Part shown: piece by piece, positions 24,836-26,435 of the stretch
How positions within the stretch are numbered: the first letter of the stretch is position 1
Layout of the letters: each line of letters opens with the position of its first letter
From: Burkholderiales bacterium
Lineage (GTDB): Bacteria > Pseudomonadota > Gammaproteobacteria > Burkholderiales > SG8-39
Length of the DNA: 32,484 bases
Reading direction: 5' to 3'
Assembly (NCBI GenBank): GCA_035489775.1
Contig: DATHJM010000430.1
Location: 1 to 32,484, forward strand
Translations under genes and position numbers: made by a program
Notes under the pieces: model-generated
Told to the model about the DNA's origin: nothing
Seen by the model: only the letters and a program-made list of their open reading frames with translations
Databases searched by the model: none

Positions 24836-25060
24836 CTATTTCTTCGCAGGTCCGGCCGTTTCCCGCTCCAGCATCGGCTTTATCTCGCGGTCTTTCTTCT
24901 CGGCGGCTTTTTTCACGTCGCCCTTCTTCATGCTCTTCTTTTTCATCTCCCCGTGCATGGGCTCGTCCATCTTCATGGGCTTGCCAGGCGCATCCGCGGC
25001 CCAGGCGCCGGTGCCGGCGGCAAGGATCGCCGCTATCGCGATGGCTTCGAGCGGTTTCAT
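24836..25060 (-). CDS. Secreted Met/Lys-rich peptide with 5-residue periodicity (resembles pentapeptide MXKDX-repeat proteins)
   Basis: The signal peptide is MKPLEAIAIAAILAAGTGAWA|ADAP. The mature 53 aa contains 6 Met and 14 Lys, phased as PMKMD/EPMHG/EMKKK/SMKKG/DVKKA/AEKKD. The start overlaps the upstream stop (TGATG). Confidence 0.7.
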   Translation of the reverse strand: MKPLEAIAIAAILAAGTGAWAADAPGKPMKMDEPMHGEMKKKSMKKGDVKKAAEKKDREIKPMLERETAGPAKK

Positions 25061-25818
25061 CAGCTGCCACTGAACCAGTTGTAGCCCTGGTCCTCCCAGT
25101 AGCCGCCCGGATACTCATTGGTGACGTACATGGACATGATGTGCTTCGGGTTCTTGAATCCGAGCTTGGTCGGAATGCGCAGCTTCATCGGGAAGCCGTA
25201 CTTGGGCGGCAGGATCTCGTCGGCGTAACGGAAGGTGAGCAGGGTCTGCGGGTGCAACGCGGTGGCCATGTCGACGCTCGAGTAGTAGTCGTCGGCGCAC
25301 TTGAAGCCGATGTACTTCGCCGATGTATCGGCGCCGATACGCGCGAGGAAATCGCTGAAACGCACGCCGCTCCACTTGCCGATCGCGCTCCAGCCCTCGA
25401 CGCAGATGTGGCGCGTGATCTGCGAGGTCTGCGGCAGGGAGTAGAGCTCGGGCAGCGTCCAGGGTTTCTTGTCGCGGATGAGGCCGGCGAGCTCGAGCTT
25501 GTAGCTCGCCCCGTCCACGTACTCGACCTCGTCCACGCTGTAGAAGGCGTTGAAGGGGAAGGGCTTGGTGATCGCGCTCTCCGGGAATTCCGGCGCGAGC
25601 TTGTTCGGATTGAAGAGCCAGGCCTGGGTTCGGTCGTTCCAGCGCGACATCCCGTTGAGCACCTTCTGCACGCTCTCGTCGTCGGTGAGATCGCAGCCCG
25701 AGAGCAAGGCGAGCGCCCCCAGCGACAATCCCTGCCTCAGGAAGAGGCGCCGCTCGATCGAGCGGATGAGCGTGGGCGCATGGTCCGCCAGGCTTGTTTC
25801 CATGGTCCGTCCTTTCAT
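25060..25818 (-). CDS. Tat-exported lipoprotein, molybdopterin-dependent oxidoreductase (sulfite-oxidase fold, short MsrP/YedY-like)
   Basis: The twin-arginine motif is IERRLFLRQG and the lipobox is LLSGC. The Mo-ligand motif is HICVEGWS, and GFPMKLRIPTKLGFKNPKHI parallels MsrP CVEAWS / [20 protein letters not shown]. The start overlaps the cytochrome b stop (ATGA). Confidence 0.8.
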   Translation of the reverse strand: MKGRTMETSLADHAPTLIRSIERRLFLRQGLSLGALALLSGCDLTDDESVQKVLNGMSRWNDRTQAWLFNPNKLAPEFPESAITKPFPFNAFYSVDEVEYVDGASYKLELAGLIRDKKPWTLPELYSLPQTSQITRHICVEGWSAIGKWSGVRFSDFLARIGADTSAKYIGFKCADDYYSSVDMATALHPQTLLTFRYADEILPPKYGFPMKLRIPTKLGFKNPKHIMSMYVTNEYPGGYWEDQGYNWFSGS

Positions 25819-26435
25819 GACGCCCTCCTTGAGCGGCCGGTGAACATCGTCGGCAAAGTGCGCGGCACGAGGATCACCATGAGTACATGGACCAATACTA
25901 TGAGCACGAGCAGCGCCATCGCGAGAAAGTGCACCACGCGCGCGCCTTCATAGCCGCCGAAAATCGCGGTGATCTCCTGCAGCTGAACCGGTTTCCAGAT
26001 CGCGAGGCCCGAGAAGACCAGCACGACGCCGCACAGGATGATCGCGAGATAGGCGGCGCGCTGCGCGGCGTTGTACACGGAGAGGTCCTCGTGCGCCAGT
26101 TTTCCGCGCAGCGCCTCAAACACGTCGCGAAATACCGCGCGTGGTGTCAGTGGAAAGAGCTTCCCGCGGAAATGTCCTGAAAAAATCCCGTAAACGACGT
26201 AGACCAGCCCGTTCAGGACGAGCAGCCACATCGCCGCGAAGTGCCACTGCAGCGCGCCGGCGAGCCAGCCCCCGAGCGTGAGCTCGTTCGGGATCCTGAA
26301 CGGGAACAGGGGCGAGGCGTTGTAGATGCGCCAGCCGCTGGTCACCATGACGAGGATCGCAAGCACGTTGATCCAGTGCGTGATGCGCACGACGAGCGGG
26401 TGGATCCTGACCCATTGCGTTTGCGCGGATTCCAT
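25815..26435 (-). CDS. Membrane b-type cytochrome (cytochrome b561 / Ni-Fe-hydrogenase-type cytochrome b family)
   Basis: There are four hydrophobic helices carrying conserved-position His residues (RITHWINVL, LQWHFAAMW, VVHFLAMALLVLIVLVHVLM). GGAGGA lies 9 nt upstream of the ATG. Confidence 0.78.
   Translation of the reverse strand: MESAQTQWVRIHPLVVRITHWINVLAILVMVTSGWRIYNASPLFPFRIPNELTLGGWLAGALQWHFAAMWLLVLNGLVYVVYGIFSGHFRGKLFPLTPRAVFRDVFEALRGKLAHEDLSVYNAAQRAAYLAIILCGVVLVFSGLAIWKPVQLQEITAIFGGYEGARVVHFLAMALLVLIVLVHVLMVILVPRTLPTMFTGRSRRAS

Follow-up and report, generated by a model that had tools for sequence, protein, structure and literature searches.

The DNA analysed here, hereafter the window, is a 32,484 nt stretch from a Burkholderiales bacterium (contig DATHJM010000430.1 of assembly GCA_035489775.1). 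At positions 24836–26435, on its minus strand, it contains an operon of three open reading frames (ORFs) sharing stop and start codons, which code for a cytochrome b, a short molybdoenzyme (Mo-enzyme) and a small exported peptide rich in Met and Lys. As an earlier note on this DNA had described, the ORFs overlap through ATGA (25815–25818) between the cytochrome b and Mo genes and through TGATG (25058–25062) between the Mo and peptide genes, both read directly in the sequence. We consider it likely that the operon is a member of a published class of antioxidant operons of the bacterial envelope, represented by YedZ1-YedY1-MrpX from Azospira suillum and C3566-C3567-C3568 from uropathogenic Escherichia coli (UPEC), because its Mo-enzyme and cytochrome b are orthologous to the UPEC proteins and the genes are arranged in the same order; judging by its layout, BcrXQP from Brucella probably belongs to the same class. 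The features of the operon, all on the minus strand, are as follows.

26444–26449, minus: GGAGGA Shine-Dalgarno (SD) sequence, 8 nt 5′ of the cytochrome b ATG (read in the sequence)
25815–26435, minus: cytochrome b gene, 206 amino acids (aa) (PF01292 Ni_hydr_CYTB match, E 8e-26)
25824–25829, minus: AGGAGG SD of the Mo gene, within the 3′ end of the cytochrome b gene (read in the sequence)
25060–25818, minus: short SUOX-fold molybdoenzyme gene, 252 aa (PF00174 match, E 2e-26)
25693–25752, minus: twin-arginine pair R23 R24 running into the lipobox LLSG-C42, with Asp at +2 (read in the sequence)
25387–25404, minus: CVEGWS, YedY-type motif with the Mo-ligand cysteine C139 (invariant in alignment A4)
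24836–25060, minus: gene for the 74-aa exported Met/Lys peptide (about 260 clusters, synteny and dN/dS)
24998–25060, minus: Sec-type signal peptide, residues 1–21, ending AWA/AD (inspection of the n-, h- and c-regions and of the AxA site)
24839–24997, minus: mature 53-aa peptide with 6 Met, 14 Lys and 1 His (composition)

The earlier note had placed an SD before the first ORF only, but the AGGAGG at 25824–25829 is located 5 nt 5′ of the Mo-enzyme ATG, and the peptide ORF is the sole one of the three in the window without its own SD. Its proposal that all three genes are translationally coupled holds for the overlaps, which are present, but the coupling of the third gene is not conserved: in the relative L081 the Mo and peptide genes are separated by 63 nt and the peptide gene has its own GAAGGAG, and in UPEC strain CFT073 the peptide gene is preceded by GAGGAGG. 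Since the peptide genes of L081 and CFT073 have their own SD, the coupling of the third gene is a local arrangement and not a trait of the family.

Products of the three genes

The four histidines of the cytochrome b (His20, His65, His169, and His183) are kept in 99–100% of 76 homologues, which, together with the PF01292 match, agrees with the earlier description of the first gene as coding for a b-type cytochrome with four His residues. The product is a four-helix, probably di-haem b membrane protein and is presumed to be the quinol-side electron donor. Comparisons revealed 54% identity to the homologue of C3566 encoded by an E. coli plasmid (L086), as well as resemblance to FdnI, the cytochrome b556 of formate dehydrogenase-N (1KQF chain C, E 3e-8). 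Conversely, blastp did not reveal similarity between the window cytochrome b and E. coli MsrQ (E 4.5), which matches PF01794 and not PF01292.

The twin-arginine motif, the lipobox, the CVEGWS motif and the alignment to MsrP that had been described for the second gene were all found, and its product has 82 aa fewer than E. coli MsrP (334 aa), close to the difference of about 80 aa given previously. The combination of twin-arginine translocation (Tat) motif and lipobox, RR...[LS/LT]GC, occurs in 79 of 80 Mo homologues; R23, R24, G41, and C42, as well as all residues of the cysteine motif (C139, V140, E141, G142, W143, and S144), are invariant in the Mo-enzyme alignment A4. The residue at position +2 of the lipoprotein is Asp in 31 of the 80 homologues, Asn in 18 and Ser in 17; following the Lol-avoidance rule of E. 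coli, the Asp of the window protein suggests that the Mo-enzyme is kept in the inner membrane.

The CVEGWS motif aligned with CVEAWS from E. coli YedY/MsrP, as did one further stretch; the identity of both proteins is 31% over 133 residues only. YedY/MsrP is also the nearest solved structure by sequence (E 5e-14), and the top Foldseek matches were its entries 1XDQ/1XDY (E 2e-12, 27% identity, TM ~0.5). The AlphaFold2 model of the Mo-enzyme is of moderate confidence (pLDDT 64), being poor over the first 100 residues and in the loop at the active site, and was used solely for finding the nearest fold; on this model, the enzyme contains the SUOX fold along with the YedY-type Mo-cysteine motif. 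The best NCBIfam model was likewise that of MsrP (NF003767).

An identity as a sulfite dehydrogenase (SorA, SorT, or SoxC), which had been raised previously as an alternative grouping, was rejected on model scores, cysteine motif and length. The enzyme reaches 38.6 bits with the SorA model (cut-off 600) and 36.3 bits with the SoxC model (cut-off 420), and the scores with both of these and with SorT are far below that with MsrP; in the match to plant sulfite oxidase, CVEGW did not align with the cysteine of that chain, located in CAGNRR; and 252 aa leave no room for the SUOX dimerisation domain, while the partner is a cytochrome b and not a cytochrome c. A rough, distance-based neighbour-joining tree placed the whole short-Mo family on a long branch apart from MsrP. 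The window clade is inside the family, adjoining a beta/gamma clade that includes C3567 and the SigF-linked loci and in which the peptide gene is nearly always present.

As noted earlier, the third product has a signal peptide and then 53 aa that include 6 Met and 14 Lys; His36 is its single histidine. Peptides of this type are encoded in about 260 clusters at 90% identity, whose few named source records are metagenome-assembled genomes of Burkholderiales or Betaproteobacteria. The majority are exactly 74 aa long, and 50 sequences sampled from these clusters show little or no variation in the core PMKMDEPMHGEMKK-SMKKGDVKKAA. In the five relatives L081–L085 the peptide gene occupies the same position, 3′ of the cytochrome b and Mo genes, and the loci share housekeeping neighbours (Methyltransf_28, SDR, ATP_bind_3, DUF3750, a convergent Pyr_redox gene, and GST). 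Values of dN/dS were 0.13–0.19 for the peptide, 0.16–0.20 for cytochrome b, 0.14–0.15 for the Mo-enzyme and 0.13–0.14 for the methyltransferase, with dS of 0.6–1.2 among the compared loci. By this measure the peptide is constrained as tightly as the neighbouring enzymes, which is a mark of purifying selection. The number of clusters, the synteny in the relatives and the low dN/dS together indicate that the small ORF is a real gene, contrary to the possibility, allowed for in the earlier note, that it might not be conserved.

The peptide resembles the MXKDX proteins (TIGR02953) in having a signal peptide and a low-complexity region rich in Met and Lys with a period of five, and in its place after the Mo gene. 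It differs from them in that only about four Met-bearing units are left, the C-terminal units (DVKKA, AEKKD) have no Met, and the sequence is fixed, whereas the number of repeats of canonical MXKDX peptides varies freely. The nearest peptide-bearing relative, L002, has a similar Lys-rich variant, GEMMKDEMKKGDKGKGGMKKGE, compared with GEMKKKSMKKGDVKKAAEKK in the window. AlphaFold2 did not produce a confident fold for the peptide (pTM 0.20); in the model, residues 15–45, the Met-rich part, are coil and residues 46–69 form a helix of low confidence. MXKDX peptides also matched Spy/CpxP models weakly (E 4e-4 to 0.04), but these matches were discarded as artefacts of signal peptide and composition. 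Incidentally, the locus L018, from a metagenome-assembled genome of Aestuariivirga sp., contains 3′ of the Mo gene another divergent kind of Met-rich peptide (coordinates 2386–2676; 96 aa, 21% Met, two Cys; MKMMKMDHMAKCDD...), which is not of the MXKDX type and has no NCBIfam match.

A fixed and Met-poor peptide fits poorly with the description of MrpX as an unconserved, disordered sink, and this leaves room for a more specific role. If the peptide, instead of being a bulk sink, were a sequence-specific partner to the Mo-enzyme, serving for instance as its docking substrate, as a small subunit or in redox relay or sensing, the unvarying core would be explained, as it persists in the 50 sampled sequences despite the dS values given above; the nearly constant length of 74 aa, against the variable repeat number of canonical peptides, and a dN/dS equal to that of the enzymes point in the same direction. 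However, the structural model without a confident fold and the presence of ordinary repeat peptides at the homologous position in sister clades speak against such a partner, and we judge it unlikely. We are similarly doubtful that the window-type peptides of the approximately 260 clusters constitute a distinct subclass, with a sequence-specific partnership to the Mo-enzyme and constitutive expression with the housekeeping genes; in such a subclass, the peptide could relay or sense redox state, serve the enzyme as a dedicated docking substrate, or be a metal-binding Met/His peptide that the enzyme keeps reduced.

Met/His-rich copper-binding motifs combine Met and His at short spacing, and the sequence MKMDEPMHGEM of the peptide has closely spaced Met and His residues; additionally, 14 of the 53 mature residues are Lys. 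The peptide might then bind Cu(I)/Ag(I) in the periplasm or, as a polycation, the envelope, with the Mo-enzyme only loosely related to it. This is very improbable given that His36 is the sole histidine, that the neighbourhood contains no genes for resistance to copper or silver, and that the equivalent position in related operons is occupied by MXKDX peptides with links to SigF, MsrA and oxidant stress.

Related loci and their regulators

A scan with a profile of diverse full-length Mo homologues, using one genome per species, confirmed at least 598 loci, of which the best 80, those closest to the query, were kept for a census by ORF and motif screens, not by gene calls. These loci are from Pseudomonas, Paraburkholderia, Cupriavidus, Variovorax, Polaromonas, Herbaspirillum, Pandoraea, Rahnella, Bradyrhizobium, and Methylobacterium, and from many metagenome-assembled genomes. 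The cytochrome b gene immediately precedes the Mo gene, in the same orientation, in 79 of the 80 loci, the remaining one being without upstream sequence. The ORF screen found a Met-rich (D-x-M-x-K)n peptide with a signal peptide directly downstream in 29 loci, and a frame-independent motif scan added three downstream, three directly upstream of cytochrome b and one nearby. A gene for an MXKDX-type peptide is thus found beside the pair in 36 of 80 loci (about 45%; 32 downstream, three upstream, one nearby), in agreement with the linkage of a small exported Met-rich peptide to the Mo/cytochrome b pair that had been anticipated. Separately, versions of the operon, either chromosomal or plasmid-borne, are carried by 353 of 5426 complete E. 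coli genomes.

The neighbourhoods of the 80 loci were searched by tblastn with one reference sequence per neighbour type, taken from L061, L051, and L054 (the Rahnella locus) and with Pfam matches to NrsF, Sigma70_ECF, a signal-peptide-bearing PMSR (MsrA), and DUF1223, with the following results.

NrsF-like neighbour: 6 of 80 loci
Neighbour like an extracytoplasmic function (ECF) sigma factor: 10 of 80 loci
Response regulator or histidine kinase like the Rahnella (L054) pair: 12 of 80 loci each, 6 of them close (73–100% identity)
MsrA-like neighbour: 7 of 80 loci
DUF1223-like neighbour: 8 of 80 loci

The SigF/NrsF-linked members of the family include L047, L051, and L061; in L051, the MsrA gene comes just before cytochrome b and is read in the same direction. 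The divergent kinase/regulator layout of L054 is also found in the OrhKR-type loci of E. coli and CFT073. A SigF-type promoter motif, GTAACC-N15-18-CGAA, occurs in 13 of 90 fetched loci, with a chance expectation of about 0.14 matches per 32 kb; in at least nine of them it is directed at the operon, ahead of cytochrome b or of the gene preceding it, and a divergent copy often accompanies it. An adjacent regulator or SigF promoter is common but not universal in the family, and its absence from a locus, as in the window, does not exclude membership.

In L015, L017, L047, L049, L055, and L061, a DUF1223-like gene precedes cytochrome b on the strand of the operon, and in L061 (coordinates 2514–3299), L047, and L055 it is situated between sigF-nrsF and cytochrome b. 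This gene may also belong to the SigF-controlled module.

Published systems and a proposed function

The closest published relative is the UPEC operon of strain CFT073, which has been studied genetically and consists of c3566 (annotated as cytochrome B), c3567 (Mo) and c3568 (Met-rich peptide); it is directly activated by the divergent two-component system OrhK/OrhR, is induced by H2O2 and by the reactive oxygen species of macrophages, and contributes to peroxide resistance and intramacrophage survival (PMC8550376). The window Mo-enzyme shows 57% identity to C3567 over 222 aa; with the paralogue encoded by the E. coli plasmid (L086), the figure is 61% over 235 aa. The order of genes in the CFT073 locus (L091) is the published one: histidine kinase and response regulator, cytochrome b, Mo, an 80-aa Met-rich peptide, and hlyCABD. 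Both systems have, in the same order, a PF01292 cytochrome b, a Mo-enzyme of about 250 aa with Tat motif and lipobox and a small exported Met-rich peptide. They differ in that the UPEC operon has the divergent two-component system and the cotranscribed hlyCABD, neither of which is in the window, and in that the UPEC peptide is MXKDX-like (36.9 bits with TIGR02953 for the plasmid copy), whereas that of the window is poorer in Met and more divergent (22.6 bits).

The gene c3566 is annotated as frameshifted in the CFT073 record NC_004431.1 (coordinates 3976–5340 of L091), and c3567 stops at an in-frame TAG, beyond which the same frame would encode GYNWFGGC, so that it loses the nearly invariant C-terminal QGYNWFGG of the family; these defects are curious, as phenotypes have been published for these genes. 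The plasmid module L086 (pJNE070796_1), with the arrangement OrhKR-cytochrome b-Mo-peptide, has about 74% DNA identity to the chromosomal UPEC copy, is located among IS elements adjoining the autotransporter gene eatA, and occurs on plasmids in 73 complete E. coli genomes.

For the perchlorate reducer A. suillum PS, the published gene table lists, next to sigF-nrsF, Dsui_0156 ("yedZ") as a cytochrome b (PF00033), Dsui_0157 ("yedY") as PF00174 and Dsui_0158 as an unnamed hypothetical protein (PMC3884062). The last was later named MrpX, a peptide with 20% Met, described as poorly conserved, which shows SigF-dependent induction and reversible oxidation in vivo after chlorite (PMC4436054). By this table, the Azospira and window operons share the order cytochrome b, PF00174 protein, Met-rich peptide. 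Unlike the Azospira operon, which is under SigF/NrsF, the window contains neither sigF-nrsF nor a SigF promoter, and its peptide has 11% Met and an invariant core, in contrast to MrpX.

These comparisons do not sustain the view of the operon as a new system, since the same order had been reported in Azospira (PMC3884062) and in UPEC (PMC8550376), and C3567 is 57% identical to the Mo-enzyme; nor does the terminal position of the peptide gene set it apart, because both published operons are arranged likewise. What distinguishes it is an unusually Met-poor, fixed-length and conserved peptide, and a setting without an adjacent stress regulator.

BcrXQP from Brucella melitensis comprises an MXKDX Met-rich peptide and MsrQP-like genes, is induced by HOCl, regulated by ECF/NrsF and placed under BcrS/AbcS (PMC8315932). 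A Rhizobium plasmid locus (L087) has the same layout, with genes for an ECF sigma factor, NrsF, MXKDX, cytochrome b/b6, and a molybdopterin-binding protein; its cytochrome matches PF01292, and its 258-aa Mo protein is about 36% identical to that of the window. The Brucella-type layout differs from the window in having the peptide gene first, a longer cytochrome b (279 aa) and a Mo-enzyme of a more distant clade. A homologue search with the Rhizobium Mo protein retrieved names of Rhizobium, Agrobacterium, and Ochrobactrum, but not of Brucella; the attempt to make the Brucella link through protein names thus failed, and the link stays layout-based. Mo-enzymes of about 258 aa, 35–42% identical to that of the window, define a sister clade that comprises L087, a Variovorax plasmid locus (L088) and an Ochrobactrum locus (L090). 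Their PF01292 cytochromes are longer (279–301 aa), and their contexts are either SigF/NrsF with the MXKDX peptide first or TetR, a hypothetical protein of about 209 aa and DUF308 with no peptide, as in L090, where the hypothetical protein is of 209 aa.

As in MsrPQ from E. coli, the system contains a periplasmic, Tat-exported SUOX-fold Mo-enzyme with a CVE[AG]WS cysteine motif. However, MsrP is a soluble protein of 334 aa and the window enzyme, of 252 aa, is predicted to be lipid-anchored; MsrQ is a ferric-reductase-like PF01794 protein unrelated to the PF01292 cytochrome b of the window; and the MsrPQ genes stand in the opposite order, with no gene for a peptide beside them. The earlier idea that the operon follows the same logic with different parts is therefore sound in relation to E. 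coli MsrPQ, from which it is separated by both the partner family and the score with the MsrP model, but not in relation to Azospira. Although the published papers refer to these systems as YedYZ/MsrPQ homologues, the PF01292 partner and a Tat-lipoprotein Mo subunit about 80 aa shorter define a separate clade, which deserves its own name and biochemistry; with at least 598 loci, the class is very widespread.

We propose that the four-helix di-haem cytochrome b would take electrons from the quinol pool and pass them via its haems to the Mo-enzyme, which would be exported folded by Tat, then lipid-anchored and probably held on the periplasmic face of the inner membrane, beside the cytochrome. 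There, the Mo-enzyme would reduce methionine sulfoxide (MetSO) in the co-encoded secreted Met/Lys peptide, and probably also in other envelope proteins, such that the peptide would act as a recyclable oxidant sink or buffer. This path, from quinol through cytochrome b and Mo-enzyme to a reduced periplasmic peptide, is supported by the linkage to Met-rich peptides, to SigF/OrhKR regulators and to MsrA across related loci. Oxidant induction and protection, which have been published for the Azospira, UPEC and Brucella homologues (PMC4436054; PMC8550376; PMC8315932), and the reversible oxidation of MrpX are taken from that literature and would apply here by analogy.

The window operon has the Tat-exported PF00174 protein of about 250 aa, the upstream PF01292 cytochrome b and the adjoining small Met-rich exported peptide that characterize the class, but several observations weigh against this assignment or against the proposed path. 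The first group concerns regulation: there is no oxidant-responsive regulator or SigF promoter adjoining the operon, since tblastn did not reveal NrsF, ECF sigma, histidine kinase, response regulator or MsrA homologues in the window, and a motif search did not find GTAACC-N15-18-CGAA in it; the operon may instead be read through from the housekeeping methyltransferase gene. The second concerns the peptide. Among the three models that the earlier note had indicated, PF00174 and PF01292 matched, but TIGR02953 gave 22.6 bits (E 7e-5) against a cut-off of 41, compared with 56–91 bits for canonical neighbours of homologous operons, 36.9 for the UPEC plasmid peptide and 20.8 for that of L002. The mature peptide has just 6 Met (11%), while canonical peptides have 13–22%, and its invariant core contrasts with the poorly conserved, repeat-variable MrpX sink (PMC4436054). 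Likewise, of the 79 loci whose downstream sequence is long enough, at least 43 show no recognisable gene for a peptide next to the pair, which indicates that the enzyme does not need the peptide. Thirdly, the Mo-enzyme scores 72 bits against the MsrP equivalog cut-off of 207, a threshold also missed by the E. coli C3567 homologue (81 bits) and by the Rhizobium protein (100 bits), and the operon has neither an equivalog-level score nor a PF01794 partner, both of which mark MsrPQ proper. Finally, the Azospira and Brucella links are based on published domain tables and matching layouts, not on sequence alignment, and the published evidence for MetSO reduction by the short clade is genetic and by analogy with E. 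coli MsrP.

Some of these observations would also be expected if the Mo/cytochrome b pair acted on another substrate, either as an S- or N-oxide reductase or as a sulfite-type dehydrogenase delivering electrons to quinone, and the peptide were incidental: the MsrP cut-off is missed, more than half of the related loci are without a peptide gene, and part of the distant sister clade is in TetR/DUF308 contexts that give no hint of oxidant stress. Nevertheless, the SorA, SoxC and SorT scores are far below the MsrP match, the CVEGWS motif is of YedY type and YedY is the closest structure, the length of 252 aa leaves no space for the dimerisation domain and there is no cytochrome c partner, as would be expected for the sulfite type, and MsrA is encoded in the fetched flanks of seven loci. 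We thus find another substrate quite unlikely and favour the reduction of MetSO. The constrained peptide of the window could serve as a defined substrate for testing this activity in the clade.

Flanking genes and transcription

The cytochrome b gene is preceded by a gene of the Methyltransf_28 family, from which it is separated by the following short sequence.

26436–26474, minus: 39 nt gap between the Methyltransf_28 and cytochrome b genes (alignment with L081, L083, and L084)

In this alignment, the segment GGTGTAACCT...CCGACC is nearly invariant, and it is followed by variable sequence that is 14 nt longer in L081, L083, and L084. We did not find a terminator-like site in the 39 nt between both genes, and the sole sigma-70-like site on the minus strand is at 27650–27678, upstream of the methyltransferase gene. 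The gap contains a TGTAACC that resembles the -35 element of SigF promoters, but it was not called a promoter as there is no CGAA at the right spacing.

On the other side of the operon, a Pyr_redox_2/Pyr_redox_dim gene, whose product is of 463 aa as called in the relatives, is convergent with the peptide gene (plus strand, ORF 23377–24825). Its end at 24825 is separated by 10 nt (24826–24835) from the stop codon of the peptide gene; this is too little room for a terminator, so the convergent transcripts must overlap. The same tight convergent arrangement of the Pyr_redox and peptide genes occurs in L081 and L083–L085.

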